Source: Actinomycetota bacterium (GTDB lineage Bacteria > Actinomycetota > Actinomycetes > S36-B12). Taken from it: 64,000 nucleotides of DNA. Positions 25,867-58,510 of this stretch are shown piece by piece; the stretch's first letter is position 1; the number at the start of each line of letters is the position of its first letter. The position numbers and the translations under genes are program-made. The notes below the pieces were generated by a model that had not been told where the DNA came from, ran no database searches, and worked only from the letters and a program-made list of their open reading frames with translations. The DNA is taken from contig WLOY01000001.1 in assembly GCA_009699015.1 (NCBI GenBank), forward strand, positions 414 through 64,413. The letters are read 5' to 3'.

Positions 25867-25906
25867 CTTGTCTGCCCCGCCCTGAAGATTGGGCGAGGCA
25901 GACAAG
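25867..25906 (-). terminator. intrinsic-terminator-like hairpin after the SBP gene
   Basis: CTTGTCTGCCCCGCCC / GGGCGAGGCAGACAAG forms a 16-bp stem (1 mismatch) with an 8-nt loop, 14 nt past the stop at 25920. A second 7-bp hairpin lies at 25845-25861. No U-tract. Confidence 0.6.
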
Positions 25907-25919
25907 ACTGATGAAACTG

Positions 25920-27179: not shown

Positions 27180-27483
27180 CCGCTTCGTTCCCTGCAACCT
27201 GCCCTTCACTTCGAAAACCAAAGTCAAGATGGCCATGCACGCACTGCATCATCCATGAGGAGGACGAATCGGAACCTACCTGCCGTTTGGTTTGAAATCA
27301 AGAGTTATTCGAAACTTGGAGTAACTTCTTGATAACGACGTGTCGAGCGAACCGTAGATCGACCTAGCGCCTGACCACAGCAATCGTGGGACGACATCGG
27401 GGGGTGCAACTGCCTGAAGGGAGCGTTGTCGCAGATTTCGCATCTGCCTACCTCATCGCCGGTGACTGATTTCCGTGGGGTAC

Positions 27484-27511
27484 TTGACACCGAACGACCG
27501 TTTGGTAAGTT
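27484..27511 (+). promoter_or_regulatory. candidate promoter TTGACA-16 nt-TAAGTT with CGTTTGGT box in the spacer
   Basis: -35 at 27484-27489 and -10 at 27506-27511, about 29 nt upstream of the GTG at 27540, which has a GGAG RBS. Confidence 0.5.
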
Positions 27512-27539
27512 CAAGGCACCACAACATTTGGAGCGGGTA

Positions 27540-28487: not shown

Positions 28488-28993
28488 ATGATTCAGGCCT
28501 CCAAAATTCCGATGGACTGCCGGATCCGCTGGTGGCGGACGCTGCTGCCCAGTGCTGGTTTGAGGACATGACCGTGGGTCGCCGCTGGGTCACGCAGCGG
28601 CGAACGATCACCGAGGCTGACGTTGTTGCCTTCGCCGGACTTTCGGGTGACTTCAACCCCTTGCATGTCGACGAGGTGTTCGCCGCAGCAGGGCCGTTTG
28701 GGCGTCGGGTTGTTCACGGCCTTCTCGTCCTGTCAATCGCGACGGGACTTCGGCAGCAAAGTGGTGTCTTCTACGGAGTCATCAAGGCCTTTGCCGAGGT
28801 CAAGTCATGGAACTTCAAGCGCCCAGTATTCATCGGCGACACAGTCACCGCGGTCACGACGGTGCTCGAGGCCCGACCCACCTCCAAGCCCGGTCAAGGC
28901 ATCGTTGAGCAAAGGGTTGACGTGGTGAACCAAGGCGGCGACATCGTCCAGTCAGGGATCTTCGTCACCCTCGTATCGGCGCGCCCCACATGA
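28484..28993 (+). CDS. MaoC-like (R)-specific enoyl-CoA hydratase / hot-dog dehydratase
   Basis: ITEADVVAFAGLSGDFNPLHVDEVFA hydratase-2 motif. The ATG at 28484 overlaps the cyclase stop (ATGA). Confidence 0.85.
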   Translation: MNDSGLQNSDGLPDPLVADAAAQCWFEDMTVGRRWVTQRRTITEADVVAFAGLSGDFNPLHVDEVFAAAGPFGRRVVHGLLVLSIATGLRQQSGVFYGVIKAFAEVKSWNFKRPVFIGDTVTAVTTVLEARPTSKPGQGIVEQRVDVVNQGGDIVQSGIFVTLVSARPT

Positions 28994-33135: not shown

Positions 33136-33835
33136 CTAGCGCATATTCGCCAAGTGTGCGGCGTACGGATCTCTAGGTGATTGCCATGACAGTACTGCCA
33201 TGGGTCGGTCGCGCTTGCGCTGGGAGATGCGTCGGCGGTGGGCGGGGGCGTGGTCCAGTTCGGTTTCCTTGGGCATGTGTTGTCGCGAGACTCCGTTGCT
33301 GTTCTCATCGGATCGGCGCTGCCATGGCGAGTGGGCCTCGGCGAAGTAGATGTCGATGCCCAGTTGCCTGGCGAGTTCGTGGTGATCGGACATTTCCTTG
33401 CCCTGGTCCCAGGTGATGGAGATGACGTGCCAGGCCCGCATGCGCCGGGTGGACACCTTGACGGGGATGGTGATCCTGGTGACTCGGCAGGCGAGGGTCG
33501 CGAGCGCGGTTCGGTCGCCTGCTCCCGCGGGGCGCTTGTCGATCATGGTCATGTCCATGATCCTTCCGCTGCCGCAGTCGGTTTTCGCCCTGGGCTGCCG
33601 CCGGGTCCGGGGCCTCGTCATGAGACTGCGGATGAACTTTCTGTCGTGGGTGTCGCCGGCGTAGAGCCAGTCGCAGACGCACCTGCGGGCTGATCGTCGG
33701 CAGGTGCGGGCACGGCCGGGCGGCATGCGTCCCGGACCGGCGACGCATCTCCTGGGAGATCGTGGACTGATCGGCACCGACCGCCGCACCGATGGCCTCA
33801 CGCAGTGGCAAGGTCAGACGGGCAACCTTGATCAT
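33136..33835 (-). mobile_element. IS30-family transposase pseudogene (frameshifted, shortened)
   Basis: The N-terminal HTH (AIGAAVGADQSTISQEMRRR) is in one frame. The DDE core (ITWDQGKEMSDHHELARQLGIDIYFAEAHSPWQRRSDENSNG) is in another. Total length is only ~700 nt. Confidence 0.75.
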
Positions 33836-45523: not shown

Positions 45524-46341
45524 TCCAATCTGCCCTTGCTGGTACTCGTTGCCCCTGCAATGCCGATGAACCGTTCGACCGGCTCGGTGACAAGCGTGAA
45601 GCCCCCATCCGCCACGATCACCTGACCCCGGATCCATCGTGATGCCGGCGATGCGAGAAAGTCGATGATCCGGCCGATGTCCTCCGGGGTACCGACCCTT
45701 CCTGCCGGGGTCCTCTCAATCCACTCACGTTCCATCTCGGGCCAGCGCAAACCCGCGTAGTGCCGGGAAGAGTCGGTGTCGACCGGACCAGGAGCAACAG
45801 CGTTGACGGCAATATCCACAGGCGCCAGTTCTACCGCCAAGCTTCGGACGAGTGCCTCAAGGGCCGCCTTGGCTGCCCCGAGGAGACCATGATTACTGGT
45901 CGCCCGCTGCGTATCGATTCCCGAGACGGCGACAATCGAGCCTGGTCGACCTGCCATGAGCGGAACGGACTCTTGAACCAGTTGCACAAATGAGTTCACC
46001 GTGACGGCCATTGTCCTGGAGAGATGATGCTGGCCGAGGTTGAGGATCGGCTTTGGGACGGTGGCAGCAGCATTGGCGACGAGCACGTCCAGCCGTCCGA
46101 ACTCATCACCGACGGCTCGCAGAGTGGTCGTGATATCAGAAGCCTCTTCGAGGTCGATGCGGGCCACCATAGAGCGGGCATCCATCTGGCTCAGGAGGTC
46201 CTGAACCTCGCAGGCCGCAGCATGATCGCGCTTGTATCCGATGACGACGGTGTGACCCGATTGACCAAGGGCCAACGCGGCAGCACGGCCGATGCCTCTT
46301 GAACCACCCGTTATGAGTGCCACCGGAGCGTGTTCGGTCAC
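45520..46341 (-). CDS. SDR oxidoreductase
   Basis: ITGGSRGIGRA, NAA, and C-terminal WIRGQVIVADGG. GTG start overlapping the upstream stop. Confidence 0.9.
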   Translation of the reverse strand: MTEHAPVALITGGSRGIGRAAALALGQSGHTVVIGYKRDHAAACEVQDLLSQMDARSMVARIDLEEASDITTTLRAVGDEFGRLDVLVANAAATVPKPILNLGQHHLSRTMAVTVNSFVQLVQESVPLMAGRPGSIVAVSGIDTQRATSNHGLLGAAKAALEALVRSLAVELAPVDIAVNAVAPGPVDTDSSRHYAGLRWPEMEREWIERTPAGRVGTPEDIGRIIDFLASPASRWIRGQVIVADGGFTLVTEPVERFIGIAGATSTSKGRLE

Positions 46342-46712
46342 GATTCCCCGCCGGTGTATTTATCGGTAAGACTCGAGAAGAACCACGCCTGCGGGAGTCC
46401 CTCGAATACATCAAGCCTTCCGATAACCGGATCGCGCCCGGCCGCGAGGGCTTCAACGCGCTCCTCCCCTTGCCACTTCATCGCGGCCTGCGCCTCGGCA
46501 AGCCTGCCCTCGGGAATCCAGTAGAGCGCCATGTACTTATACGGTGCATCAACCTCTCGGTGGACCCCAGCTAGAACGAACCGCTGCGCGGACTCGATGG
46601 GGTCGAGCTTGTCCACGAGTTCGACGATGTGGACATTGCTGTACCAGTCGTTGAACGCCTCCTCCAATTCAGGCTTGGCGTTACTCAGCACCATCATCAA
46701 GTGCTCCGGCAT
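46338..46712 (-). CDS. hypothetical small protein (possibly dimeric alpha/beta-barrel, EthD-like)
   Basis: 124 aa, translationally coupled to the SDR. The family guess rests only on size and the N-terminal MMVLSNAKPELEEAFNDWY pattern. Confidence 0.45.
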   Translation of the reverse strand: MPEHLMMVLSNAKPELEEAFNDWYSNVHIVELVDKLDPIESAQRFVLAGVHREVDAPYKYMALYWIPEGRLAEAQAAMKWQGEERVEALAAGRDPVIGRLDVFEGLPQAWFFSSLTDKYTGGES

Positions 46713-46760: not shown

Positions 46761-47684
46761 TTACAGCACCGCAATCGCATTCGCTGGCGAGCTGAGCCCA
46801 CCGGGAATCGACAGAGGGACCGCGACGAATTGGAACTCGTAACGATCGATGGCCGCGCAGGCCGTGGCCAACAATTCAAAATCAAGTAATTCCCCGATGA
46901 CAAATCCGAGCATGGGCAACAGCTTCCGGTGCAGGAATCCGTCCTCCGGGCGTGCAGGCACGCACTCGAATCCAGGATTGTCGATCGTCACTGCAGCCGA
47001 GCCGCTATCCCACAGGAATCGTGCCATGTCATCATTGGCCCGAAGCCCGATGAACCGAGCAGACAAGTCGGATGAGCCGCGCTCGGCGACCGTCAAGCCC
47101 CGGTAGCCAGCAACCCAACCAGTCCGGATGCACAGGATGTCACCGCTTCGAAACGTGACCCCCTGAGTCACCGCCACTTCCAGCAAGGTCTCGGCCTCAA
47201 TCGGTTGACCCGCAAACGGATCCAACGGTCTACCCTGGCCTTGCGCCCATCGAGCGACATCGAGCAGAACTCCCCTACCCACGATGCCGCGCTGAGCCAG
47301 GTGCTCGATGCTCAGAGCATCTCCCGCCGATTTCAGGTCAGTAATTCCGCCGTAGAACCCACGCTCACGGGCGCGCACGTGTCGAAAGCCATCCCATTGT
47401 GAGGAGCATTGGGGGTTGTACGAGTCGAGAACATCCTCGAACTCATTGCGGCCCGTGGCGTGAACTGAATGCCGCCATTGCTCCCGCCCGAATAGCGGCG
47501 GCTGAATTTCGCCCAGAGATAGATTGAGGGGAATCGCCTGACCGAGGGTCACGGTCGCTGCTGAAGCAACGATGGCATCCTGAGTGATGCGCGAAAGGGT
47601 CCCAAGGTTCGGATCAAGAAGGCCCCACGAATGGGGCATCCCCAAGACCTCGTCAACGGGGAGATCGTCGTACCGCGTGGTCAT
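46761..47684 (-). CDS. cyclase-family protein, paralog 3
   Basis: 307 aa. SSQWDGFRHV, GRGVLLDV, GDILCIRTGW, and C-terminal PGGLSSPANAIAVL. Confidence 0.75.
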   Translation of the reverse strand: MTTRYDDLPVDEVLGMPHSWGLLDPNLGTLSRITQDAIVASAATVTLGQAIPLNLSLGEIQPPLFGREQWRHSVHATGRNEFEDVLDSYNPQCSSQWDGFRHVRARERGFYGGITDLKSAGDALSIEHLAQRGIVGRGVLLDVARWAQGQGRPLDPFAGQPIEAETLLEVAVTQGVTFRSGDILCIRTGWVAGYRGLTVAERGSSDLSARFIGLRANDDMARFLWDSGSAAVTIDNPGFECVPARPEDGFLHRKLLPMLGFVIGELLDFELLATACAAIDRYEFQFVAVPLSIPGGLSSPANAIAVL

Positions 47685-47771: not shown

Positions 47772-48440
47772 CTACTGATTACGCGCTCCGCATGCCCGCA
47801 GTGCAAATTCGACATATGCCGAGGCAACCTGTTCAGGTCCCATCTTCGAGCCAGCGCTGTACCAGTCAGGGATTCCGGTAAAGGCGGCCCAGATGAACAG
47901 GGATGCCATGCGCGGGTCGACGTCCACATCAAGATCGCCTTCGTCCTGACCGGCACTGATGAGTTTACGCAAGCTTCGATCGTAATAGCGCTGTTGTTCC
48001 AAGAGTGAGGAGCGCGAAGAGTCCGACGCATAGCGCCACTCGCGCGAGTACAGACCAGCGCGCTCAAGGTGCGTGAGTGTCCACATGGCGTAGTCGTGCA
48101 GGAAGCGGGTCAGCCGTACAACTGCGGCACCTTCGCCATCCGTCGCCTCCTTCGTGAACTTCATGAGGTCGTCATGAGAGTCCTCAAAGATCTTGTCCAG
48201 CAGGCTCTCTTTTGAATCGATGTAGTAATAGAGGCTGCCCTTGAGCATCCCCAGTGCATCGGCGACGTCCTGAACCGAGGCGCTTGCGTAGCCCTTCTCC
48301 CAGAAGATCTGAATCGCAACGTCGATGACCTCGCGATCACGCGCACGTTCTCCGTTAAGAGACCCAGTGGTTGATCTCTTGGGCTTCCGTGTGACCTTTG
48401 GGGAGCGCTTGGAGCTAGCGTCCGGCTGGTTCGATGCCAT
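47772..48440 (-). CDS. TetR-family transcriptional regulator
   Basis: VIDVAIQIFWEKGYASASVQDVADALGMLKGSLYYYIDSKESLL is a canonical TetR HTH. Confidence 0.9.
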   Translation of the reverse strand: MASNQPDASSKRSPKVTRKPKRSTTGSLNGERARDREVIDVAIQIFWEKGYASASVQDVADALGMLKGSLYYYIDSKESLLDKIFEDSHDDLMKFTKEATDGEGAAVVRLTRFLHDYAMWTLTHLERAGLYSREWRYASDSSRSSLLEQQRYYDRSLRKLISAGQDEGDLDVDVDPRMASLFIWAAFTGIPDWYSAGSKMGPEQVASAYVEFALRACGARNQ

Positions 48441-48540: not shown

Positions 48541-49926
48541 TCATCGAGAGTTCCCTTCCCAGCCAGGAAGGAAGGTCTCCTCGATCCAGCGGGTGGTGAT
48601 CGGCTCCGTTCTGAATCCCTCATCCTCCACGATCGATCGGTGGAGGGGGGCGGTCGTGGACACTCCGTCAATTCGCAAGCGGTCAAGGGCACGTGCCATG
48701 AGCCGGAGCGCCGCGGGACGGTCGAGAGCATGAACGATCAACTTCGCGACCATCGAGTCATAGTGGGGCGGGATTTGCACGCCCGACTGTACGAACGTGT
48801 CGACTCGAATCCCCTCTCCTTGTGGCGCCACCCACTCCAGTATGAGGCCGGGATTCGGCATGAAGTTTGCCCGCGGGTCCTCCGCATTGATACGGCACTC
48901 AATGCTGTGTCCCGAAATGGAAACCTCGGACTGGGTGAACCACAGTGGTTCGCCCTGCGCGATGCGCAACTGCGCACGAACAATGTCGACGCCGGTCACC
49001 ATCTCCGTCACGGGGTGCTCGACCTGCACTCGGGCATTGAGCTCTAGGTACAAGAAGTCTTGGCGATCAACGTCAACGAGGAACTCAATGGTTCCCGCTC
49101 CAACATAGTCAAGTTCCTTCGCGAGCGAAACTGCCGCAGACCGCATCGCCTCGATGAGCTCAATCGGAAGCGCAACTGCGGGGGCCTCTTCGATGAGCTT
49201 TTGATGCCGACGCTGTGCGCTGCAGTCTCGCTCTCCCAGGTGAATGACGTTTCCATAATGGTCAGCAAGAACCTGCACCTCGATGTGGCGGGCATGTTCG
49301 ACGTAGCGTTCGAGGTAGACCGTCCCATCACCAAAGGCCATAAGCGCCTCTTGCTTCGAGGTTTCAAAGGATCGTTCCAACTGGGCGGTGTCTCGAACGA
49401 TCGTCATGCCTCGACCACCACCGCCTGCCGACGCCTTGAGAATGTATGGGAACGCATCAAGCCGAAGTGCCGCTTCGACGGCAGCCTCGAGGGAGTCGAG
49501 TCCCTGCGTCCCCCCACCCGTGGGAATACCTAGGTGGACGGCGACCTCACGTGACTTCAGCTTGTCACCGGACCGACGCATGACGTTCCCTGGTGGGCCG
49601 ACGAATACGAGCCCGTGCTCCTCACAGGCTTCCGCCAACTCTGGACGTTCTGAAAGGAATCCGTAACCAGGATGGATGGCGTCACACCCTGATGCAAGGG
49701 CTGCGGCAACAATCCGTTCAACCGAGAGATAGCTCTCCTGGGCCGACGCAGGCCCAATGACCACCACCCCGTCCGCCAACCGTGCAGCAAGGGTGCCCTT
49801 ATCTGCCTCCGAAGCGGCGACGATGGATTCCAGCTCCTCGTCGAAACAGGCCCGCACGATTCGCACGGCGATCTCACCGCGATTCGCTACAAGGACGCGT
49901 CGAAAGGGACGATGCTTCACGCTCAC
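48541..49926 (-). CDS. biotin carboxylase subunit (ATP-grasp)
   Basis: RVLVANRGEIAVRIVRAC, ASAGGGGRGM, and EHPVTE. GTG start at 49926/49920 inferred; the ORF extension to 50130 overlaps the crotonase gene. Confidence 0.9.
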   Translation of the reverse strand: MSVKHRPFRRVLVANRGEIAVRIVRACFDEELESIVAASEADKGTLAARLADGVVVIGPASAQESYLSVERIVAAALASGCDAIHPGYGFLSERPELAEACEEHGLVFVGPPGNVMRRSGDKLKSREVAVHLGIPTGGGTQGLDSLEAAVEAALRLDAFPYILKASAGGGGRGMTIVRDTAQLERSFETSKQEALMAFGDGTVYLERYVEHARHIEVQVLADHYGNVIHLGERDCSAQRRHQKLIEEAPAVALPIELIEAMRSAAVSLAKELDYVGAGTIEFLVDVDRQDFLYLELNARVQVEHPVTEMVTGVDIVRAQLRIAQGEPLWFTQSEVSISGHSIECRINAEDPRANFMPNPGLILEWVAPQGEGIRVDTFVQSGVQIPPHYDSMVAKLIVHALDRPAALRLMARALDRLRIDGVSTTAPLHRSIVEDEGFRTEPITTRWIEETFLPGWEGNSR

Positions 49927-49987
49927 GTTGCCAACCGCTCTGCACTTGGGCTCATCGATCCGCTCACCCGGTGACAATCCCTTTGGG

Positions 49988-50788
49988 TCAGGTACCGTTG
50001 AAGACAGCTGGACGCTTCTCAGCGAACGCCGACAGGCCCTCGCGATGATCAGCCGATGCTCGGCAAACCGCTTGAGAGAATCCCTCCAGCTCTGACATCT
50101 GCTCGAGCGACTGCTGCCACGATTGATCAACGAGATTCTTCGTCATGGCCAACGCAACAGTTGCCCCGGAGGCCAGACTGCGCGCCGACGTGGTCGCAAT
50201 CTCCATCAACTCAGCAGCCGGCACAGCCTGGGCGATAAGGCCCATTGCCAGTGCGTCGAGAGCGTTGAACCGGCGACCCGTGAGGAGGAGTTCCTTCGCC
50301 CGAGCTGTCCCGACAATTCGCGGCAGAAAATGGAGCACCCCGCAGTCTGGTACCAATCCGCGATGGACGTAGCCGAGCGACATCTGCGCATCTTCTGCAG
50401 CAATGACGATGTCGCATGCCAAGGCCAAGCTCAGTCCACCACCGTGCGCATGGCCGTTGACGGCAGCAATCACGGGTTTGGGTAACTGAGCGAGTGGTAT
50501 GAACACGGACTTCAGCAAGTGGTCCTGTCGCATCCGAGCACGTTCTGGAGATAGATCGGGATCCATCTCGGACAGATCGCCTCCCGCGCAGAACGCGCGT
50601 CCGGCACCTGTGATGAGCACCGCTCGGATGCTGTTGTCGTACCTGACATCATCAAGCCATCCAGCCAATGCGCGCTTCAAGTCCATGTTCAAGGAGTTGA
50701 GCGCCTCGGGCCGATTGAGGGTCACGGTCGCCAGACCGTCCTCAACGCGAACGTCGAGGACGTCCGAGCTACTCATCAGCTGGACCAT
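49988..50788 (-). CDS. enoyl-CoA hydratase/isomerase (crotonase)
   Basis: RPEALNSL, FCAGGD, and NGHAHGGGLSLALACD. AAGGTGA RBS before the ATG at 50788. Confidence 0.85.
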   Translation of the reverse strand: MVQLMSSSDVLDVRVEDGLATVTLNRPEALNSLNMDLKRALAGWLDDVRYDNSIRAVLITGAGRAFCAGGDLSEMDPDLSPERARMRQDHLLKSVFIPLAQLPKPVIAAVNGHAHGGGLSLALACDIVIAAEDAQMSLGYVHRGLVPDCGVLHFLPRIVGTARAKELLLTGRRFNALDALAMGLIAQAVPAAELMEIATTSARSLASGATVALAMTKNLVDQSWQQSLEQMSELEGFSQAVCRASADHREGLSAFAEKRPAVFNGT

Positions 50789-51713
50789 CGATCACCTTGA
50801 AGAAGTCGATGTCGCTGAGGCTTCCCGTCCTGCGATCACTCCAAACTGCCTGAACTCGTGAACCGGGGTGCACCGATCCCGAGCGTAAGGCTTCCGCAGA
50901 AAGCCCGCCCACCGTGTGGATGAGCCGTGTAGACGTGCCATCAAGGACGATCTCCGCATATACGTATGGCGGTGGGACTCGCTGGCCGATGAACTCAATG
51001 TGCACAACCGAGCACGCTTGAAGCACTCCGGTATCGGGCACATCCACCCAGTCGCCTGTACGAACGAAACACGCCTCGCAGTAAGCCCTCGGCGGCACGA
51101 GGACATTGCGACACGATGGGCACCGCACACCGCGGATTCGCCGGTCGTTCTTAATCCCGTCGAATAGGGAACCATAGAAGTGGCCGTAGGCATGCTGGTA
51201 GTCGAGGACCATCTGGTAGTTCAGCTGTTCGATCGGAGTCGCGGTTTCACCTGCCTCTTCCACCGCATGGACGGGCTCGCTCGGTGCAAGCGCGAAGCCC
51301 ATCAAATCCATGACCGCGCCCTGCGGTTCAGCGGCCCAGACCGCAGTAACCCTCGCCCCCATGCTGAGGGCAGCCGGGTCGCCCTCGACCACTTGGTGCA
51401 GAAAGGGAATGTCAGTGCCATCAAGCAGCACGAGCGCAACCGTTCCCTGATCGGTAACGGTCCAAGCCAGAAGATCGCCGGACGGCGGCACGATGACGAG
51501 GTCGTGAGCGTCACCACCGCAGTCACCGCAGAAGTCCTGCGCAGGAACGCGAATGGTCTCGCATGCCGAACATCGCGTCCCGACAATTCGCTGTTGCGCC
51601 AATTCGGCAAGAAATACCCCCGTAGCGGCTCCCGCCGTCAGGGTGTACGGCATCGAGAGCCGGGCATCCATCGCACCCATGACTTCCCTGGGCAACCCCG
51701 CAGTTGTGGTCAT
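50769..51713 (-). CDS. tandem DUF35 protein (two Zn-ribbon + OB-fold units)
   Basis: Two copies of the module: CSAC...CGDC then an OB fold, and CPSC...CEAC then an OB fold. Confidence 0.75.
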   Translation of the reverse strand: MTTTAGLPREVMGAMDARLSMPYTLTAGAATGVFLAELAQQRIVGTRCSACETIRVPAQDFCGDCGGDAHDLVIVPPSGDLLAWTVTDQGTVALVLLDGTDIPFLHQVVEGDPAALSMGARVTAVWAAEPQGAVMDLMGFALAPSEPVHAVEEAGETATPIEQLNYQMVLDYQHAYGHFYGSLFDGIKNDRRIRGVRCPSCRNVLVPPRAYCEACFVRTGDWVDVPDTGVLQACSVVHIEFIGQRVPPPYVYAEIVLDGTSTRLIHTVGGLSAEALRSGSVHPGSRVQAVWSDRRTGSLSDIDFFKVIDGPADE

Positions 51714-51723
51714 CGAATCCCTC

Positions 51724-52881
51724 TCAGTCCTTAGTCGCGCCGACGACGGCTACACCACGAAGGTTTGCCCAGCCTCCGCCTGCCTGCACAAGCGCAAGTT
51801 CTGCGCCGCCTATCTGGTGTGCCCCAGCCTTACCTGTCACCTGCATTGCGGCTTCCGCCAATCGGATGAGGGCCGTTGCGCCAATCGGGTTCGCTCCCAT
51901 GCATCCACCAGAGGGGTTCACCGGAATATCGCCGCTCATCTCCGTGGCACCTGAAGCGATGAGTTCGGCGGCCCCACCCTCTGGGCAAAGACCGAGCCCC
52001 TCGTAGTAGCTCAACTCAAAGCACGTGTAAGGCTCCTGAAGTTCCGCAACATCGAACTGCCTGCGCGGATTGGTCACTCCGGCATTCTGGTAGACGCGGG
52101 CTGCGGCTACTTTAAGTGGCACTGACTGAAGCATCGATCGGTTCGGGCCGTTGTCTGCTTCCGAGTAGTAAGCCATGCCCCGGATCCATGCGGGCCGGTC
52201 AGTAATCGCCGCGGCATCATCCTCGGCCGCGAGAATCACCGCACATGCGCCGTCCGATATTGGCGGCACATCGAGGAGTTTGATCGGCCAGCAGAGTGGC
52301 TTGGACGCAAGCACTTCCTCGACCGTGACCTCCTTTTTCACATGAGCCTTGGGGTTGAGCATGGCGTTCTTTCGATTCTTGACAGACACCATGGCCGCGG
52401 CTTCCTCGGTATGCCCAAGTTTGTCCATTCGAGCACGCCAATAGGCGGCAGAGAATCCCATGATTCCGACCGCGAATTCTCGCCCCCAGAACGGGTCGTA
52501 CAGCGTTGAAATCGAGGCCTGAAGCGCGCCCTCGGACAACTTGTCATAGGCAACGACGAGGACCCGCCTCGCCAAGCCCGCCTTTATCTGGTTCATTGCC
52601 TGAAGTGCTCCCGCAAGTCCGGTTCCACCACCGCTTGTGACTCTCACCACCGGCTTGTAGCGGGCGCCAAGCGCATCCACGAGCCACTTTTCGGGCTGGT
52701 TCACCGAACCGAACATGGCTGGTCCGCTCGCCACGACTACGGCATCAATGTCGTCCATGCCCAGACCAGCGTCAAGCAGCGCCTCAGTGACGGCCTCGCG
52801 AGCCAAGCCCGCCTGGCTCACATCGAGCCGACGGCGTGAGTGCACCGTCTGGCCTGTACCGACGATTGCGATCTGAGTCAT
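51724..52881 (-). CDS. thiolase-fold protein, SCP-x/Ltp-like, lacking nucleophilic Cys
   Basis: Start MTQIAIVGTGQT overlaps the upstream stop (ATGA). The nucleophile loop reads VTSGGGTGLAGA. C-terminal NPSGGCMGANPIGATA. Confidence 0.8.
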   Translation of the reverse strand: MTQIAIVGTGQTVHSRRRLDVSQAGLAREAVTEALLDAGLGMDDIDAVVVASGPAMFGSVNQPEKWLVDALGARYKPVVRVTSGGGTGLAGALQAMNQIKAGLARRVLVVAYDKLSEGALQASISTLYDPFWGREFAVGIMGFSAAYWRARMDKLGHTEEAAAMVSVKNRKNAMLNPKAHVKKEVTVEEVLASKPLCWPIKLLDVPPISDGACAVILAAEDDAAAITDRPAWIRGMAYYSEADNGPNRSMLQSVPLKVAAARVYQNAGVTNPRRQFDVAELQEPYTCFELSYYEGLGLCPEGGAAELIASGATEMSGDIPVNPSGGCMGANPIGATALIRLAEAAMQVTGKAGAHQIGGAELALVQAGGGWANLRGVAVVGATKD

Positions 52882-54011
52882 GAGGTCTCCAAGGTGACGA
52901 CGCAATGGTTCTGCATACCGATACCGCCGGCGCCATGCGCCAGACCGGTGGTGGCGCCTGTTGGTCCGTGAGCGGATCGGCCCCCCAACTGCGATGCCAC
53001 CTCATGCAGCCGAACGAGTCCCGTCGCCATGACAACATCGGCCGGAAGCGACCCTCCGGAAGCGTTGAGGCCGGGGGCGGAGCCCGGAGCGTACAGGTCC
53101 ATCGCTCGTCCAGGCTCCGCGAGTCCAATCGCCTCAAGCACCATCAATTCCCCAACAGTGGAGCCGGCTGAGACTTCTACTACGTCAAAGTCGCGTGCAC
53201 TCGACGCACCTGACATTCGAAAGGCATTCGCGGCGGCTGCTGCTGCTGCTGGGAAAGATGTGGCATCGCGAGCAGCTAGGAAATGCTGGTCAATCGCGGA
53301 TCCCATCCCCGTGATCCAAACCGGCCTATTGGTGACCTGACGAGCGACATGCTCCGCGGCAACCACAAGCGCTACCGCCCCGTCAACTGGTCGCGCCATG
53401 TCGCGGCGACGGAGCGGTGTGGCCACGAACTCCTCCCAGTAAGGATCGGCGAGCATCGCGTGTTTTGCGTCGACCCAAGAGTTGTCACTCGCCGCCGCCC
53501 ACGCCCGATCACTCACCGCACGCAGGGCCTCCGGATCGATTCCATACCGAGCGAGGTAACGCTGCGCATAGAGGCCCGCGGCCGAATGCTGGTCAAGGCC
53601 AACTGGACGTTGGGTGAATGGCTCCGCGAGCGTGGACCAGAAGTTTCGCGGGTCACTTTCCGAAGACTTCGAGTAGGCGACCACGAGGCCGACAGATCCA
53701 GAGCCTGCGAGGATCTTCGTCGTGGCGTACACCGCCGACCACAGGCCATCCTCCTCGACCCGTGATTCCTCTTTGTGGTGAGCACCCATGGCTCCAAGGA
53801 AGCCGCAGTTGGAGATGCTCCTGCCGTCTAGAAAGTCGCTTCCCGAATCAATGACGAAATCGACATCCGCCATTCGAAGCCCGGTGCCCAGGAGCGCCTG
53901 AGATACGGCCTGGGTGATCAGGTCAACGTGCTGGCGGTCGGACCACGCGCCCCTGAATTCTGTCTGCGCGCTCCCCACCACCGCCGCGCGATTCTTCATA
54001 TCTGTGCCCAT
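52878..54011 (-). CDS. thiolase-fold partner subunit (Cys-less)
   Basis: AAVVGSAQTEF N-terminus and C-terminal NASGGSLPADVVMATG. Start at 54011 or 53999 is uncertain. Confidence 0.7.
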   Translation of the reverse strand: MGTDMKNRAAVVGSAQTEFRGAWSDRQHVDLITQAVSQALLGTGLRMADVDFVIDSGSDFLDGRSISNCGFLGAMGAHHKEESRVEEDGLWSAVYATTKILAGSGSVGLVVAYSKSSESDPRNFWSTLAEPFTQRPVGLDQHSAAGLYAQRYLARYGIDPEALRAVSDRAWAAASDNSWVDAKHAMLADPYWEEFVATPLRRRDMARPVDGAVALVVAAEHVARQVTNRPVWITGMGSAIDQHFLAARDATSFPAAAAAAANAFRMSGASSARDFDVVEVSAGSTVGELMVLEAIGLAEPGRAMDLYAPGSAPGLNASGGSLPADVVMATGLVRLHEVASQLGGRSAHGPTGATTGLAHGAGGIGMQNHCVVTLETS

Positions 54012-54180
54012 GGCACTATTCAACCATTCGTTTGGTTGAGCGCGCAAGTCACGCTTTTAGCTTGATCCGGAATCATTCAAACTCCCGTTTGGTTGCTATT
54101 TAGCCGCCAGCCCGCTATGTTGCTCCCCCTCAGAGCAACGTGAGCTGGGTGGATGCCGACAGTCGGAGGACAGACTCACC

Positions 54181-54696
54181 ATGACAGAGAACGCAAGTGC
54201 CAAGGACCTGAGATCGCTGCTCAAAAGCGTAGAGACTGCCGGATGGGATTACGCACGCATTGAACTTGACGGTCTCACGATTGTCGTCTCGAAGGACGCG
54301 GATCCCGGCATTCATACAGTCATTCCGGCTACGGCCGAGGTGGCAAGAGAGCAAGGACTCGGCAACGTCCCGGTCTCACCCTCGCCTTCGATTCCGGCCA
54401 AGGCTCCCATCGCTTCACCAACCATGCCCACGGAAGCGCCTAGCTTCGAAGACGCCACCACTGTGGGATCTCCATCGATTGGATTGTTCTGGCGATCTCC
54501 GAAGCCGGGCGCGCCGCACTTCATCGAAGTCGGACAGGAAGTCTCGGCCGATGACACCGTCTGCATCATTGAGGTTATGAAGCTCATGACGCACGTCAGA
54601 GCGGGCCACGACGGAACAATTGCACGTATCCACCCTTCAAACGGCGACATGGTCGAGTATGGAACACCCCTCGTCGACATCGTTCCAAAGAAGTAG
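54181..54696 (+). CDS. biotin carboxyl carrier protein (BCCP)
   Basis: 171 aa. Pro/Ala-rich linker, then the biotinyl domain with CIIEVMKLM (the biotin-attachment Lys in the EVMKL motif). Confidence 0.85.
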   Translation: MTENASAKDLRSLLKSVETAGWDYARIELDGLTIVVSKDADPGIHTVIPATAEVAREQGLGNVPVSPSPSIPAKAPIASPTMPTEAPSFEDATTVGSPSIGLFWRSPKPGAPHFIEVGQEVSADDTVCIIEVMKLMTHVRAGHDGTIARIHPSNGDMVEYGTPLVDIVPKK

Positions 54697-54748
54697 TGCT
54701 TTGTTTCACTTCTGCAACCATGCTTTCGGCTGAATTGAGGATGGATCG

Positions 54749-56221
54749 ATGACCGATCACGTCGAGTTCATTGACACGACAATGCGCGATGGGCAACAGA
54801 GTCTCTGGGGCATGCGCATGCAAGGACGCCACCAGTTGGCGCTCGCTGACGACATCGACCGTGTGGGCTACAGCGTCGTCGATATGGTCGTGAGCAATGT
54901 CTTTGAGGCTCAGGTGCGGTTCGGCAAGGAGGACCCCTGGCAGAACCTTGATCACGTGCGCGCCGCAATGCCGAACAGCAAACTCCGCGCAGGAATGCGA
55001 AGTTTCGCACTTGTCGGCTTCAGCAAGAATCCGGATTCCCTCGTCGAACTGTGGGTAAGAACGCTCGCGAAACACGGTGTCGGCAGCTACTGGTTGGTCG
55101 ACTGCCTATTCGACATGGCGAAGATGCAATGGATTGCCGACATCGTCCACGACACAGGCTCTGATGTGGTGCCGTGCCTCATGTACGCCAATAGTCCCGT
55201 GCACACCGACGAATACATAGCAAACATCGTGCGCCAAATGGCCAGCTTCAAGAACGTTGACAGCATCATGTTTGCGGATGAAGCCGGTGTCCTTCGACCC
55301 GAGGGTGCTCGCACTCTCCTTCCTGCCCTCGTCGACGCCGCCGGCGATGTCCCACTGGAAATGCACTGTCATAACACGACCGGACTGGCGCCGCTGAACT
55401 ATCTGATCGCCATCGAGGCAGGCGTGCGGATTCTTCACACCGCCAGTCGACCCCTCGCCAATGGCCCATCACTACCATCGATTGAGGGCATGCTTGACAA
55501 CCTCAAGCACACAGGGCATTCACACCAATTGAGGACGGCGCCACTCACCCGAATCGCTGAAACCCTCACATACATCGCAGGGATGGAAGATCGACCGCTT
55601 GGGGTCCCAAGTGAGTATCGGGAGTTCACCTACAAGCACCAACTGCCCGGGGGGATGACCGGCACTCTTCTCGCTCAGTTGTCGCAGTACGGCATGAGTG
55701 ACCGTCTTGAAGAGGTACTCGAGGAGGCTGCGGTCGTACGCACCGAGGTCGGCTACCCCCCGAGCGCCACTCCCTTCTCTCAGTTGATCGGCATTCAAGC
55801 GGTCCTCAATGTCGTAACCGGAGAGCGCTACAAGATCGTTCCCGACGAGATGATCCTCTACGCGCTCGGTCACCTCGGGACTCCAGCCGCGCCCTTCGAT
55901 CAAGATGCCCTCGACTCAATTCTCTCGTCGCCCCGGGGTAAGGACTTCATCTCGTGGGAGCAGCCCCAGCCATCCCTCAAGGAACTTCGTCATGAATATG
56001 GTGAGAATCTCTCGGACGAGGAACTCATCCTCCGTGCGGTGATGCCCAAGGAGGATGTGGACGCGGCACTCGGAAACGGGCCCGCCAACATGGAAATCGC
56101 GCCACCACCCGGAACACGCGCCGCGGCCATCGCCAAGGACATCATCGAACGCTCGACCGCCAATTTCGTCCAAGTTCAGCAACCCGGCCTCAACATGACC
56201 CTCAAGCGCGGATGTCTCTGA
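54749..56221 (+). CDS. carboxyltransferase, 5S / pyruvate-carboxylase-B / oxaloacetate-decarboxylase-alpha type, without biotinyl domain
   Basis: FIDTTMRDGQQSL, EDPWQNL, and the metal site EMHCHNTTGLAPLNYLIAIEAG. No AMKM motif at the C-terminus. Confidence 0.85.
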   Translation: MTDHVEFIDTTMRDGQQSLWGMRMQGRHQLALADDIDRVGYSVVDMVVSNVFEAQVRFGKEDPWQNLDHVRAAMPNSKLRAGMRSFALVGFSKNPDSLVELWVRTLAKHGVGSYWLVDCLFDMAKMQWIADIVHDTGSDVVPCLMYANSPVHTDEYIANIVRQMASFKNVDSIMFADEAGVLRPEGARTLLPALVDAAGDVPLEMHCHNTTGLAPLNYLIAIEAGVRILHTASRPLANGPSLPSIEGMLDNLKHTGHSHQLRTAPLTRIAETLTYIAGMEDRPLGVPSEYREFTYKHQLPGGMTGTLLAQLSQYGMSDRLEEVLEEAAVVRTEVGYPPSATPFSQLIGIQAVLNVVTGERYKIVPDEMILYALGHLGTPAAPFDQDALDSILSSPRGKDFISWEQPQPSLKELRHEYGENLSDEELILRAVMPKEDVDAALGNGPANMEIAPPPGTRAAAIAKDIIERSTANFVQVQQPGLNMTLKRGCL

Positions 56222-56292: not shown

Positions 56293-56871
56293 ATGAGCAC
56301 GGTATTGCAGGCACTCCGGCTGAAGGGCCGCGCTACTGCCGGCGAACTTGCCATTTCGATGGGAAGTTCGCTCAGTGAGGTCGAACAGGAGTTAGAGACC
56401 CTTGCACAGGATCACTTGGTGGTCGAACGGACGACCGGCAAGAGGCCGGGATGGATGCTCACCGGCGAAGGTCGCGAACGCTACGACGCCTCGCTGGTGG
56501 AACTGCGAACCCCCGAAGTCATCGAACGACTATCCGAGACCTATGGCGAGTTCCTTCATCACAATGCACCCGTCAAGGAGCTCTGTGCCCGCTGGCAGTC
56601 AGTGTCCGAAGACGCCGACCGATTCGAGATCATCGATGAACTCGCAGAGATTCAGGAGAAGGTTGGTCCAAGCCTCCTCAGTGCCGGCGAAGTTATCTCG
56701 CGATTCGGCGCATATCCCCATCGTCTCACCGCCGCCATGCTCAAGGCTTCCGACGACCATCGGTTCGTCGTGAGCCCGACCGTCGATAGCTTTCACACTG
56801 TCTGGTTCGAGTGCCACGAGGACTACCTTCTAATGCTCGACCGTTCGCGTGAGCAGGAAGGCTCTTGGTAG
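56293..56871 (+). CDS. hypothetical winged-helix protein
   Basis: 192 aa from MSTVLQALRLKGRATAGELA (wHTH-like N-terminus). The C-terminal ~120 aa were not recognised. Confidence 0.5.
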   Translation: MSTVLQALRLKGRATAGELAISMGSSLSEVEQELETLAQDHLVVERTTGKRPGWMLTGEGRERYDASLVELRTPEVIERLSETYGEFLHHNAPVKELCARWQSVSEDADRFEIIDELAEIQEKVGPSLLSAGEVISRFGAYPHRLTAAMLKASDDHRFVVSPTVDSFHTVWFECHEDYLLMLDRSREQEGSW

Positions 56872-56968
56872 GACGGCACGATTCAGGCATCCAGCACGGG
56901 TAACGCGCACGATGTACTGAAGTACTCACCCTGCTCGCAACGTACTCAACTTGAAGGGGAATGGTCAC

Positions 56969-58510
56969 ATGGGCGGCTTCACGCTCGACAGCATTCTGGC
57001 GAAGAACCTTCCTGCACAGGGCGCCGAGGCCAACCGAGTTGCCCTTGTCTTCCAGGATCGCGAGTACACGTTCGAAGAGCTCGACTCCGGTTCCGAGATG
57101 CTCGCCCACGGACTCCTCAAGCAGGGCTTCTCCAAGGGCGATCGCATGTGTGTTCTCGCCAAGAATCGAGCCGAATGGTTTGAGATTCTCTTCGCACTCG
57201 CGAAGATCGGCGGCGTTCTCGTGCCAGTGAACTACCTCTTGAAAGCAAGAGAGGTTCAACACATCGTTGAAGACTCCGGCGCCACGTGGTTCCTTGGCGA
57301 GGACATCCTCTGGTCGACTATCGACGGATTTCGTGACGACGCGGGCCCGCACCTGCGATACATCAGCGTTGGTGACGACCAATCAGGTGCGATCCCATAC
57401 GCATCCCTTCGCGTCGAGTTGCCACCGATCCGCAGGGAAGTGGCAGTGTCGTCGGGCGACCTTGCGCTGCTGCAATACACGTCTGGAACCACAGGATTTC
57501 CCAAGGGCGCCATGCACACCCACTCCACAATCCTGTGGAACACAATTCATCAGATTCCCGACTTCGGAATCAACCGCGACGACGTACACCTCGTCATTCC
57601 GGCGATGTGCTGGGCGGCCGGGTTCCACAGCTTCACGTTGGCCGTCATGTGGGCCGGTGGCAAGATCGTGCTGAATCCCAGCCGGAATTTCGATGCACAC
57701 GAGTTCGGAGCGACCGTGACCCGCCACCGGGTGACAAAGACGATTCTCGTTCCCTCGGTGCTTCGAATTGTTCTGGACTCCGATGCCCTTGAGCGACACG
57801 ATCTGTCGTCCCTGAATCTCGTCCTGAGCGGCGGCGAACCGGTGCCCGTCGAGGCAATCTCCGACTGGAACCGCAGGGTTGCCTCCTGCCACCTCGTACA
57901 GGGCTATGGCATGGGCGAATTTCCCACCCTCATGCTCTATCTGTCTCCAAAGGTTGCAGTTCGCAAGGCAGGCGCCGCGGGCAAACCCTGCCTCGTAGCG
58001 CAGGTCCGTGTGGTCGATGAGACATTTCAGGACACGTCGGTTGGTCAGGTCGGCGAAATCGTCGCCCTATCTGAGGCGTGCATGGTGGGCTATTACGGAA
58101 AGCCTGAGGCCACAGCCCAGGCCTTCAACGACGGCTGGATGCGAACCGGTGACCTCGCCTTCAAGGACGAGGAGGGCTACGTTCACATTGCCGGACGCGC
58201 AAAGGAAATGATCATCAGCGGGGGCTTGAACGTCTACCCGGCTGAGGTGGAGCGCGTTATCCTCACCGTTGCAGGCGTTGCCGAGGCGGCCGTCGTGGGT
58301 GAGCCCGACGAGAAGTGGGGCGAGATCATCCACGCCTACATCGTCGTCCCACCGGGAGGCACGGTCGAGGTTGCACTTCTTGAGTCGACATGTCGAGACG
58401 AACTCGCGAACTACAAGGTTCCTCGGCAATGGACGTTTCGGGAAGAACCACTGCCACGCACGACCTCTGGAAAGATCCAAAGACACGCGCTATCGGTGAC
58501 AAACCCCTGA
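56969..58510 (+). CDS. AMP-dependent acyl-CoA synthetase/ligase
   Basis: The ATG at 56969 lies 9 nt after AAGGGGA. YTSGTTGFPKGA, TGDLA, PRTTSGKIQR. Confidence 0.9.
   Translation: MGGFTLDSILAKNLPAQGAEANRVALVFQDREYTFEELDSGSEMLAHGLLKQGFSKGDRMCVLAKNRAEWFEILFALAKIGGVLVPVNYLLKAREVQHIVEDSGATWFLGEDILWSTIDGFRDDAGPHLRYISVGDDQSGAIPYASLRVELPPIRREVAVSSGDLALLQYTSGTTGFPKGAMHTHSTILWNTIHQIPDFGINRDDVHLVIPAMCWAAGFHSFTLAVMWAGGKIVLNPSRNFDAHEFGATVTRHRVTKTILVPSVLRIVLDSDALERHDLSSLNLVLSGGEPVPVEAISDWNRRVASCHLVQGYGMGEFPTLMLYLSPKVAVRKAGAAGKPCLVAQVRVVDETFQDTSVGQVGEIVALSEACMVGYYGKPEATAQAFNDGWMRTGDLAFKDEEGYVHIAGRAKEMIISGGLNVYPAEVERVILTVAGVAEAAVVGEPDEKWGEIIHAYIVVPPGGTVEVALLESTCRDELANYKVPRQWTFREEPLPRTTSGKIQRHALSVTNP

Follow-up and report, generated by a model that had tools for sequence, protein, structure and literature searches.

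Gene content of the locus

The window, which is the whole stretch of 64,000 nucleotides analysed from a freshwater actinobacterium, contains a three-part biotin-dependent carboxylase divided between two divergent operons, one of which also encodes thiolase-like proteins. Pfam and NCBIfam models and sequence motifs bear out the gene content and coordinates that an earlier note had assigned to both from the sequence. These genes, and the others on which the argument draws, are as follows.

18333–19079, minus strand: histidine phosphatase (Pfam His_Phos_1, 3e-44)
19022–20545: FAD-dependent oxidoreductase gene between the phosphatase and the kinase-like set
20464–25999, minus strand: PEP-synthase-like kinase set as a whole (Pfam matches)
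20464–22503, minus strand: PPDK_N/PEP-utilizer protein of the kinase set (Pfam)
22352–23350: luciferase-like gene interposed in the kinase set
23415–25061, minus strand: 548-residue protein of the kinase set, without an assigned family
25058–25999, minus strand: PEP-utilizer protein of the kinase set (Pfam)
46761–47684, minus strand: PF04199 "cyclase"-family metal hydrolase (Pfam match)
47772–48440, minus strand: TetR regulator downstream of BC (Pfam TetR_N and TetR_C_24)
48541–49926, minus strand: biotin carboxylase (BC), begins with GTG and closes the thiolase-like operon (Pfam CPSase_L_D2, 5e-68, with Biotin_carb_N and Biotin_carb_C)
49988–50788, minus strand: crotonase-fold protein, apparently of PaaG type (Pfam ECH_1, 2.5e-62)
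50769–51713, minus strand: tandem DUF35 protein (Pfam zf-ChsH2 twice, and OB_ChsH2_C)
51724–52905, minus strand: thiolase-like ThlB2 (Pfam Thiolase_C_1 and Thiolase_N)
52878–54047, minus strand: thiolase-like ThlB1 (Pfam Thiolase_C_1, 1.5e-15)
54012–54180: divergent intergenic region separating the two operons, read from sequence
54181–54696, plus strand: stand-alone BCCP with the EVMKL biotinyl-lysine motif (Pfam Biotin_lipoyl, 1.1e-18)
54749–56221, plus strand: carboxyltransferase (CT) with motifs DTTMRDGQQS and HCHNTTG (Pfam HMGL-like and PYC_OADA)
56293–56871, plus strand: 192-residue winged-helix protein; the longest reading frame begins at 56212, and homologues have 192 residues
56951–58510, plus strand: AMP-forming acyl-CoA ligase of the CT operon (Pfam AMP-binding, 5.7e-77)

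ThlB1 has an alternative ATG start at 54011, and the true start of ThlB2 is probably the ATG at 52881 since its homologues are 384–385 residues long. Within the divergent intergenic region (54012–54180) the sequence CGTTTGGTTG occurs twice, one copy lying within the palindrome TCAACCA-N6-TGGTTGA, a candidate operator; no match to the sigma-70 consensus was found in this region. BC scores 583.6 bits against PRK08591 (NCBIfam cut-off 597) and BCCP 98.6 bits against TIGR00531. BC, BCCP and CT each occur once in the 64 kb, and a tblastn search with a Carboxyl_trans-containing query matched the window at the BC region only, so that the AccA/AccD-type transferase which the earlier note had reported missing is indeed absent from it.

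A remodelled carboxyltransferase

The best Pfam, NCBIfam and PDB matches of the CT are to PycB, OadA and 5S, and its AlphaFold2 model (pLDDT 88.7) aligns by Foldseek with 5ks8, 1rqb and 2nx9 at a TM of about 0.8. In common with these enzymes it has an HMGL-like TIM barrel with PYC_OADA, the metal ligands (Asp and two His) and the Arg-Asp...Gln pattern, but identity to them is only 31–34%: the carbamylated Lys has become Ala, with Glu178, two residues on, in its place, the catalytic Thr/Ser is Gly, RDAHQS reads RDGQQS and a Tyr is Phe. The CT carries no biotinyl domain, and unlike in the PycB, OadA and 5S systems no fused BCCP domain or membrane beta subunit is found in the window. Because the CT scores under every NCBIfam cut-off (294, where the PycB equivalog requires 734) and has a remodelled active site, the view that it differs from ordinary PycB, OadA or 5S members is supported, and with the Gly at the catalytic Thr/Ser and the carbamylated Lys missing its chemistry may differ from that of any characterised CT. 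An ordinary three-subunit anaplerotic pyruvate carboxylase, lying near a catabolic operon by accident, would account for the best matches and for the bare BCCP-BC-CT trios seen among some family members (as at locus L003). Such a reading seems extremely improbable given the scores below all curated cut-offs, the replacement of carbamylated Lys, catalytic Thr/Ser and RDAHQS His alike, the location of BC inside the thiolase-like operon, and a conserved TetR-regulated catabolic context, the TetR gene being syntenic in L001, L053, L054 and L085.

The earlier note had proposed placing the CT in a phylogeny, and neighbour-joining trees (200 bootstraps), made with proxy sequences rather than the real HpeA, AcvE or XccA, put it in a family that is monophyletic (99%) and sister to the Hpe/Acv-like CT proxies (99%). 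By these trees the window CT appears to be a member of a large Lys-less family, sister to the CTs of Hpe/Acv-type ketone carboxylases. Its identity to the proxies is 32–36% in an alignment covering residues 5–486, and so the C-terminal extension is common to both.

Known three-part ketone carboxylases

HpeCBA of Rhodococcus rhodochrous GD02 carboxylates 4-phospho-acetophenone with the use of one ATP (PMC9618137); AcvCDE of Sphingobium sp. SYK-6, whose AcvE is PycB-like, and XccABC of Aromatoleum aromaticum are likewise three-part ketone carboxylases (bioRxiv 10.1101/2022.04.28.489975). The marK operon encodes a further BC, BCCP and PycB-type CT, and its MarK-BCCP-BC-CT-HAD arrangement, in which the Hpe/Acv-like proxy CTs also sit, has been tied experimentally to acetovanillone catabolism (PMC12624787). 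Action of a separate BC, BCCP and PycB/5S-type CT on a substrate other than a 2-oxoacid, namely phosphorylated aryl methyl ketones, is thus already known. The earlier note had offered either recruitment of such a CT to a new substrate class or a pathway through a 2-oxoacid or ketone enolate; the ketone enolate now fits best, and recruitment is, in view of HpeCBA, AcvCDE/XccABC and marK, not new in principle.

HpeCBA, AcvCDE and XccABC resemble the window system in their separate BC, BCCP and PycB-like CT without a biotinyl domain, in the C-terminal extension of the CT, in catabolic surroundings that include a CoA ligase, and in having a kinase and phosphatase encoded for the same pathway. The differences are in the active site, where the window CT has FADEAG without a carbamylatable Lys against IKDPSG in the proxies, and Gly against their Ser/Thr, and in the partners, which are Cys-less thiolase-like, DUF35 and PaaG-like proteins in the window and a HAD phosphatase and CouO-type hydrolase in the known systems. 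The scan of window reading frames of at least 180 residues detected no aromatic-ring pathway.

The CT retains Arg13, Asp14, Gln17 and Arg84, as do its clade and most other family members. We take Arg84 to be the equivalent of the pyruvate carboxylase (PC) Arg that binds the pyruvate carboxylate, and in the active-site alignment the Hpe/Acv-like proxies have Thr there, so the substrate may yet be a 2-oxoacid. In that event the system would be a pathway-specific, non-anaplerotic carboxylase that modifies its 2-oxoacid intermediate at C3, in the way PC carboxylates pyruvate, and the match of the CT fold and funnel domain to PC, 5S and OadA would be in keeping with it. We regard this as rather unlikely, because the nearest characterised relatives act on ketones, the ligase two genes downstream of CT fits a beta-keto acid better, and the context is one of CoA ligases, thiolases, SDRs, kinases and phosphatases without aminotransferases or 2-oxoacid dehydrogenases.

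The thiolase-like, DUF35 and crotonase module

The thiolase-like pair proves to be Cys-less, as the earlier note had it: neither protein has the nucleophilic Cys or the GHP His, the motifs at those sites being EEDGLW and ADVVMATG in ThlB1 and SGGGTG and GANPIG in ThlB2. The best NCBIfam model for ThlB1 is PRK07937 (189 bits, cut-off 419), and ThlB2 scores 362 bits against PRK08313 (cut-off 514). ThlB2 is very strongly conserved (82–87% identity across actinobacterial orders), and ThlB1 is about 64% identical in syntenic loci. The DUF35 protein has two zinc-ribbon and OB-fold repeats, both ribbons (CxxC...CxxC) retaining four Cys, is syntenic in L001, L053, L054, L078, L079 and L083–L085, and is presumed to be a scaffold for the pair. 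As in Ltp2-ChsH2(DUF35) and Sal-Shy(DUF35), a Cys-less SCP2-thiolase fold is encoded beside a DUF35 protein; the window differs in its two different thiolase-like subunits and free-standing tandem DUF35, and its thiolase-like operon has no MaoC hydratase, unlike the Ltp2/Sal steroid side-chain aldolase systems. At the SCP2-thiolase HDCF position ThlB2 has QEPY, the catalytic motif of Ltp2 (YDHF) or Sal (YDCY) not being found in register, and so the "Ltp3/Ltp4-like aldolase" of the earlier note stays an analogy.

The crotonase fits PaaG (1,2-epoxyphenylacetyl-CoA isomerase) best, by NCBIfam (TIGR02280, 217 bits, cut-off 345) and among PDB matches (6sl9, 3hrx and 4fzw_C, all PaaG). Ser120 and Tyr140 occupy the two hydratase Glu sites and, with the PaaG Asp148 retained, give the Ser, aromatic, Asp active-site pattern of PaaG; this Ser/Tyr/Asp pattern is common to all module-linked crotonase orthologues; no other paa-type genes were found among the scanned window genes. 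Judged by these residues the protein is isomerase-like and of PaaG type, not a canonical hydratase, so the crotonase fold holds while the hydratase role, with both glutamates missing, is unsupported.

This bears on the Atu/Liu-type sequence of the earlier note, in which an enoyl-CoA with a 3-alkyl branch, such as a C24-branched sterol or isoprenoid side chain, would undergo gamma-carboxylation and then crotonase hydration and thiolase-like retro-aldol cleavage. Every neighbour being acyl-CoA directed, the "lipid-transfer protein" models PRK08313 and PRK07937 being the top ones for the thiolase-like proteins, and the tight linkage of module and carboxylase in several orders would all suit it. 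It is nonetheless improbable: we know of no PycB-fold CT acting on a CoA thioester, the PaaG signature stands in every module-linked crotonase orthologue, ThlB2 is without the Ltp2/Sal motif, the import genes encode an ABC system, its binding protein being of the Peripla_BP_4 family, and not a sterol Mce system, and the acyl-CoA ligase two genes downstream of CT, in the same operon, suggests a free-acid product.

Conservation of the linkage

Linkage of carboxylase and module, which the earlier note had set as a test, is conserved: the whole block recurs at L001, with a CT 77% identical, and the module with a carboxylase recurs across actinobacterial orders, so the arrangement is not chance. 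At five other loci in four genera the module forms a single co-directional operon with (BCCP-)BC-CT at its end, but the CTs there belong to another clade (clade A, which holds the other module-linked loci; the window CT is of clade B), and orthology of the window CT with them received 0 of 200 bootstraps. The window system is thus chimeric, and its BC is 65–72% identical to clade-A-linked BCs and 54–61% to clade-B-linked ones. Two unrelated systems side by side, with BC serving another partner and BCCP-CT-ligase using a BC encoded elsewhere, would explain so mixed a set, and BCCP-CT pairs without an adjacent BC do exist (L002). The presence of only one BC, BCCP and CT in 64 kb, the retention of the divergent layout in L001 and L004 (the contig of L005 breaks off about 675 bp upstream of BCCP and shows the BCCP-CT side only) and the clade-A loci, whose thiolase-like operon includes BC, BCCP and CT together, make this very improbable.

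Flanking the CTs of the family are acyl-CoA ligases, Cys-containing true thiolases, SDRs, PPDK-like kinase sets and phosphatases, and these neighbourhoods appear to match the Hpe logic of kinase, carboxylase, phosphatase, ligase and cleavage. The window ligase is syntenic in L001, L004 and L005 and is presumed to activate the carboxylated product. The 192-residue protein (pLDDT 93) combines an all-helical domain with a winged helix, the N-terminal wHTH, to which its PDB matches are confined; within the CT family it is conserved adjoining ligase and PPDK-like genes, and "hyp202" of the kinase-containing clusters is a homologue. The PF04199 hydrolase is a recurrent clade-A CT neighbour, adjoining CT or BC in L053, L060, L063, L065, L068, L072, L077, L085 and L088. 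Compared with an R. oxybenzonivorans set operonic with BCCP-BC-CT, the three kinase-set proteins show identities of 39%, 36% and 41%, and such sets stand complete or partial beside clade-B CTs in about 20 loci. In the window the set and the histidine phosphatase two genes from it lie 29–36 kb from the carboxylase, the set outside the carboxylase operons; phosphatases accompany both the Hpe/Acv and the clade-B systems.

A candidate route through a carboxylated ketone

The reading we prefer, with about an even chance of being right, is an enzyme that uses ATP and biotin to carboxylate a ketone at its alpha-carbon, the substrate possibly phosphorylated and the beta-keto acid product activated by the ligase. 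BC from the thiolase-like operon, BCCP and CT would form one three-component enzyme built like HpeCBA, AcvCDE and XccABC, in which BC would carboxylate the BCCP biotin and the CT metal site would enolise a carbonyl compound, most likely a ketone, before CO2 passes to its alpha-carbon. The ketone may bear a phosphate from the kinase set at 20.4–26.0 kb, and the beta-keto acid would be activated by the same-operon ligase (56951–58510). The Cys-less pair, tandem DUF35 and PaaG-like crotonase would act on pathway CoA thioesters through non-thiolytic C-C chemistry and through isomerisation of double bonds, either making the ketone by a retro-aldol-type cleavage or processing the carboxylated CoA ester. 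Downstream of the ThlB1/ThlB2/DUF35 module at L084 come an esterase and a BVMO in place of a carboxylase, which fits a ketone product.

If this ketone reading is right the net reaction is that of the acetone and acetophenone carboxylases (Acx, Apc), ATP-dependent conversion of a ketone to a beta-keto acid and then CoA activation (PMC5214803), although those enzymes are biotin-independent, hydantoinase-like and without homology to any window part. A ketone-type carboxylase together with Cys-less thiolase-like genes points to a candidate breakdown route for a carbonyl compound. The surrounding island holds a BVMO, luciferase-like monooxygenases, lactonases, a KstD-like flavoprotein, many SDRs, ACADs, five CoA ligases and the ABC importer, and this content makes a hydroxy-ketone or acid of alicyclic or isoprenoid-like type a candidate substrate.

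Judged from its sequence, the CT (PycB/5S-fold carboxyltransferase) encoded in the window belongs to a widespread, uncharacterised sister family of the HpeCBA and AcvCDE ketone carboxylases, one whose metal and catalytic site has been remodelled. In the window this family is wired to a Cys-less thiolase-fold module, which comprises ThlB1, ThlB2, a tandem DUF35 protein and a PaaG-like crotonase.

Gene organisation

The gene content and coordinates claimed by the earlier note were all borne out by ORF listing and by Pfam and NCBIfam scans, and one biotin carboxylase (BC), one biotin carrier (BCCP) and one CT are found in the whole 64-kb window.

Genes of the two divergent operons
52878-54047, minus: ThlB1, thiolase-like; first gene of the minus-strand operon
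51724-52905, minus: ThlB2, thiolase-like; second in the operon, probable start 52881
50769-51713, minus: tandem DUF35; third
49988-50788, minus: crotonase; fourth
48541-49926, minus: BC; GTG start, last of the operon
54181-54696, plus: BCCP; EVMKL motif, across the intergenic region from ThlB1
54749-56221, plus: CT, 490 aa; HMGL-like and PYC_OADA domains, without a biotinyl domain
56293-56871, plus: 192-aa protein; winged helix and all-helical domain, model pLDDT 93

After BC come a TetR protein, a PF04199 'cyclase', a 124-aa protein, an SDR and a CoA ligase, in that order, and on the plus-strand side a second CoA ligase follows the 192-aa protein. The operons are separated by 133-169 nt (54012-54180), where promoter and terminator scans and an inverted-repeat search gave nothing exceeding chance. 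Two copies of CGTTTGGTTG were spotted there by eye, the first within the palindrome TCAACCA-N6-TGGTTGA, a candidate operator at which the TetR or the winged-helix protein could bind.

By Pfam scans the window is a catabolic island, with five CoA ligases, several ACADs and crotonases, many SDRs, a BVMO, two luciferase-like monooxygenases, an SGL lactonase, a KstD-like flavoprotein, three PF04199 paralogues, a second Cys-less thiolase-like/DUF35 set and an ABC importer with a Peripla_BP_4 binding protein. The CT gene has a 99% match to the MAG 'Candidatus Nanopelagicales bacterium EUL_266'. A steroid-specific reading of the island was set aside on two grounds: its importer is of the Peripla_BP_4 ABC kind, and ring-cleavage genes did not appear among the window genes scanned.

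A carboxyltransferase with a remodelled active site

The TIM barrel and PYC_OADA fold with its Asp/His/His ligands is present in CT by Pfam, alignment and Foldseek, and the AF2 model (pLDDT 88.7) superposes on 5S, PycB, OadA and the CT domains of pyruvate carboxylase (PC) with a TM of about 0.8. CT scores under every curated NCBIfam cut-off of the PycB/OadA/5S type, both for the equivalogs (PRK14041, 294 against 734; TIGR01108, 290 against 757; PRK12330, 228 against 827) and for the domain model PRK09282 (333 against 402). Alignment to the PDB references 5ks8, 2nx9 and 1s3h locates the differences.

Active-site positions of CT
Metal ligands: D14, H206 and H208 kept
Other residues kept: Arg13, Gln17, Arg84
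RDAHQS: RDGQQS in CT; RDGHQS in 9 of the 120 closest homologues
Tyr of the GY motif: Phe in CT
Carbamylated-Lys motif xKDMAG: FADEAG in CT, with Ala176 at the Lys position and Glu178 two residues on; Lys in 3/3 PDB references
Thr/Ser of PGGM(x)(S/T)N: Gly in CT (PGGMTGTL)

The replacements recur among the 120 closest homologues and the sampled family members. Most of the family has Glu at the Lys position, and the full-length members compared have either Glu, or Ala, Ser or Gly with a downstream Glu, or Tyr. Gly occupies the Thr/Ser site, that of the PC catalytic residue T882/T908 (PDB 3hbl being the T908A mutant), in every sampled family member; of the 120 closest homologues one has Ser there (PGGMTSTL) and the others Gly. 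At 50% clustering 383 clusters match CT at E<=1e-30, among which the stand-alone CTs of about 490 aa are widely varied at the active-site positions.

An anaplerotic role is very unlikely, the active site and the gene context both speaking against an ordinary PC. A Na+-pumping decarboxylase was set aside, since the scanned neighbouring genes showed no OadB- or GcdB-like membrane subunit and the window encodes a BC.

In one subclade of family CTs the Lys/Met positions are Tyr/Thr, and Asn takes the place of the second metal His (L024, 2957-4399; L049, about 2880-4340, with tblastn hits 3003 and 4340; L075 and L076, 10001-11449; all numbered relative loci). Many of these CTs are second copies adjoining a normal CT and, from their sequences, may be non-catalytic partners.

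Relation to the known ketone carboxylases

Three-component biotin carboxylases using a PycB-like CT on ketones are already known. In R. rhodochrous GD02 the substrates of HpeCBA are 4-phospho-acetophenone and 4-phospho-acetovanillone, which it carboxylates with the use of 1 ATP, acting after the kinase HpeHI and before the phosphatase HpeD, ligase HpeE and hydrolase HpeF (PMC9618137). AcvE of Sphingobium SYK-6 shares 26% identity with PycB and has XccA and ApkA/HpeA as homologues (bioRxiv 10.1101/2022.04.28.489975), and in N. aromaticivorans the operon reads MarK-AcvC-AcvD-AcvE-AcvF (PMC12624787). The window system shares with Hpe, Acv and Xcc a separate BC, BCCP and PycB-like CT without a biotinyl domain.

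The MarK-type arrangement is exactly matched on plasmids of bisphenol-degrading P. putida and S. bisphenolicum, and the CTs of these plasmids (L091 and L092) served as proxies for HpeA/AcvE/XccA. They align with the window CT over the full length at 36% and 32% identity. The proxies keep the Lys and the Ser/Thr and have Thr at the Arg84 position, whereas the window CT is Lys-less and has Gly and Arg84. Because Arg84 is retained, action on a 2-oxoacid is the main rival to action on a ketone. The phylogenetic placement that the earlier note had called for puts CT outside PycB, OadA and 5S alike. In an NJ tree with 200 bootstraps, in which the proxies represent the Hpe/Acv side, the Lys-less CTs are monophyletic (198/200, 99%) and sister to the proxies (99%), the window CT not lying inside the proxy clade. 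Next out come canonical-site CT-BCCP-BC trios of Burkholderia and Arthrobacter plasmids, and outermost PycB, OadA and 5S.

The Burkholderia and Arthrobacter trios, with canonical Lys and Ser (L093, 6980-10392; L094, 6932-10330), adjoin carbonic anhydrase, acetate symporter and biotin synthesis or transport genes, and by sequence they may be true three-part PC-like enzymes.

Conservation of the linkage

A scan of species-representative genomes confirmed at least 565 CT relatives, and the best 80 of these loci are mostly from Actinomycetota, including abundant freshwater lineages. That conservation of the linkage between carboxylase and thiolase/DUF35 operon might fail in related genomes had been raised as a refutation; the synteny survey finds it conserved. 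The complete block recurs in L001, where CT is 77% identical, and in five other loci (a Streptomyces strain, two Nocardioides, Acrocarpospora and Microbispora) the module is followed by (cyclase)-(BCCP)-BC-CT as one operon.

Identity across these loci is 77-87% for ThlB2 and 68-72% for BC, and only 47-49% for CT. Their CTs fall in clade A, which has 100% support, the window clade being included in 0/200 bootstraps, and the window CT falls in a separate clade B. The window BC is 65-72% identical to clade-A-linked BCs versus 54-61% to clade-B-linked ones, and with a clade-B CT the window system is therefore chimeric. Since the module has been joined to such a carboxylase via two CT lineages, the link would seem functional and not an accident.

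The module also occurs without the carboxylase, in Salinibacterium with a CoA-transferase, two ACADs, an SDR and a MaoC protein, and in Leucobacter with an esterase and then a BVMO downstream, esterases and BVMOs being typical ketone-processing enzymes. Cyclase genes often adjoin clade-A CTs, as in the TetR-CT-cyclase order of Saccharopolyspora spinosa and Amycolatopsis.

A kinase-like gene set

Clade-B CTs have as neighbours acyl-CoA ligases, SDRs and thiolases that retain Cys and His and are in some cases paired with a DUF35 protein. At about 20 loci in Actinomycetota and Proteobacteria they stand next to a conserved set, whole or partial, made up of a PEP-utilizer protein, a protein of about 525 aa, a ligase, a protein of about 200 aa and a PPDK_N/PEP-utilizer protein, often with a phosphatase. 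By analogy, set and phosphatase appear to mirror the Hpe logic of kinase, carboxylase, phosphatase, ligase and cleavage.

Homologues of the set at 36-41% identity lie in the window at 20464-25999, as a minus-strand trio of a 679-aa PPDK_N/PEP-utilizer protein, a 548-aa protein and a PEP-utilizer protein, with a luciferase-like gene interposed. The trio is followed, within 18333-25999 on the same strand, by the KstD-like flavoprotein gene and then by this phosphatase:
18333-19079, minus: His phosphatase, His_Phos_1

These PPDK-like and phosphatase genes are 29-36 kb from the window carboxylase; in clade-B relatives they are operonic with BCCP-BC-CT in many genomes.

The 192-aa protein is a homologue of the roughly 200-aa component and keeps its place between ligase and PPDK-like genes in genomes that include those of Mycobacterium and Gordonia. 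Searching the PDB by fold gave a generic wHTH match only, the helical domain matching nothing. Because one homologue (P0481) has a PEP-utilizers domain, the 192-aa protein may be a kinase subunit and not a regulator.

The thiolase-like pair and the crotonase

The claim that the thiolases are Cys-less holds: aligned to SCP2 thiolases, both ThlB1 and ThlB2 are without the nucleophilic Cys and the GHP His. Loss of this Cys and a DUF35 partner are shared with the Ltp2/Sal aldolases. At the HDCF position of the SCP2 thiolases, ThlB2 reads QEPY and ThlB1 SAGS (ungapped register), TcLtp2 and CtSal having YDHF and YDCY (PMC12329534). QEPY fails the Ltp2/Sal motif, and an Ltp-like aldolase is for ThlB2 no more than an analogy.

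A second set on the minus strand, at 6282-10654, is paralogous to ThlB1, ThlB2 and DUF35:
9581-10654, minus: ThlB1-like ORF, no Pfam match, 34% identical to ThlB1
8377-9660, minus: ThlB2-like, Cys-less, 38% identical to ThlB2
7895-8566, minus: single DUF35
6282-7892, minus: CoA ligase

Canonical enoyl-CoA hydratases use two catalytic Glu, in GGGxE and PE motifs (E144 and E164 in rat ECH), whereas the window crotonase has neither. Its top matches in NCBIfam and the PDB are PaaG isomerases; Ser120 and Tyr140 stand at the Glu positions with Asp148 kept as in PaaG, a pattern conserved in nine orthologues and in every module-linked one. The hydration step that the earlier note had assigned to the crotonase is for this reason unsupported.

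Proposed pathway and its significance

From the parts observed, the fold, the residues retained or replaced and the conserved linkage, a pathway can be drawn up. BC would put CO2 on BCCP-biotin, and CT would enolise a metal-bound carbonyl and carboxylate its alpha-carbon, the substrate most likely being a ketone, possibly with a phosphate handle. A ligase would activate the beta-keto acid, and the thiolase-like, DUF35 and PaaG-like proteins would cleave C-C bonds without thiolysis, and isomerise, CoA esters belonging to this pathway.

Gamma-carboxylation of the Atu/Liu type, with crotonase and aldolase candidates in the same operon, is less likely. MCC/GCC-type carboxylases have a crotonase-fold Carboxyl_trans CT, whereas tblastn at E<=10 found no Carboxyl_trans (PF01039) homologue in the window, in line with the absence of an AccA/AccD-type CT stated in the earlier note. 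Literature searches for a carboxylase gene for C24-branched sterol degradation, and for DUF35 with a biotin carboxylase, returned nothing relevant. Taken overall, the observation in the earlier note stands and its interpretation is supported in part, the linkage proving conserved and the hydration step being unsupported.

The first demonstration of ketone carboxylation by a biotin enzyme with a PC-type transferase dates from 2022 and is confined to lignin-derived aryl ketones, and the window CT family is a much larger sister family of those enzymes, its active site lacking two residues treated as essential in every characterised relative. Should it carboxylate non-aromatic ketones, it would provide a new CO2-fixing step in the breakdown of alicyclic or branched organic matter and a biocatalyst for beta-keto acids, and would show Glu replacing a carbamyl-Lys metal site.

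A broader and rather improbable reading is a general bypass of skeletons that block beta-oxidation, in which a Cys-less thiolase-fold lyase would free a ketone from a branched or ring-bearing acyl-CoA, the Lys-less PycB-type biotin carboxylase would carboxylate it, and ligation and cleavage would return it to CoA metabolism. If true, this would be an oxygen-independent alternative to Baeyer-Villiger routes, built on a new metal-site design with Glu in place of carbamyl-Lys. Bicarbonate-dependent removal of C24 alkyl and isoprenoid methyl branches has long been postulated, and the bypass would have retro-aldol cleavage come first and ketone carboxylation second. Since there are cultured carriers (Nocardioides carbamazepini, Microbispora, Acrocarpospora, a Streptomyces strain and Rhodococcus plasmids), substrate and chemistry are testable by experiment.

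Minor features of the island

The PF04199 'cyclase' paralogues lie at 2229-3173, 27426-28487 and 46761-47684, the second sharing 61% identity with the third and having a MaoC dehydratase (28388-28993) after it. The 124-aa protein (46338-46712, minus) has no Pfam match; its syntenic counterparts measure 121 aa in L001 and 122 aa in the Salinibacterium module that lacks the carboxylase. Within the island, a stretch with a weak integrase-core (rve) match (33136-33801, minus) may be the remnant of a mobile element. A sigma-54-activator-like AAA+/HTH_8 protein (14927-16672, plus) adjoins a CoA ligase in this actinobacterial MAG.
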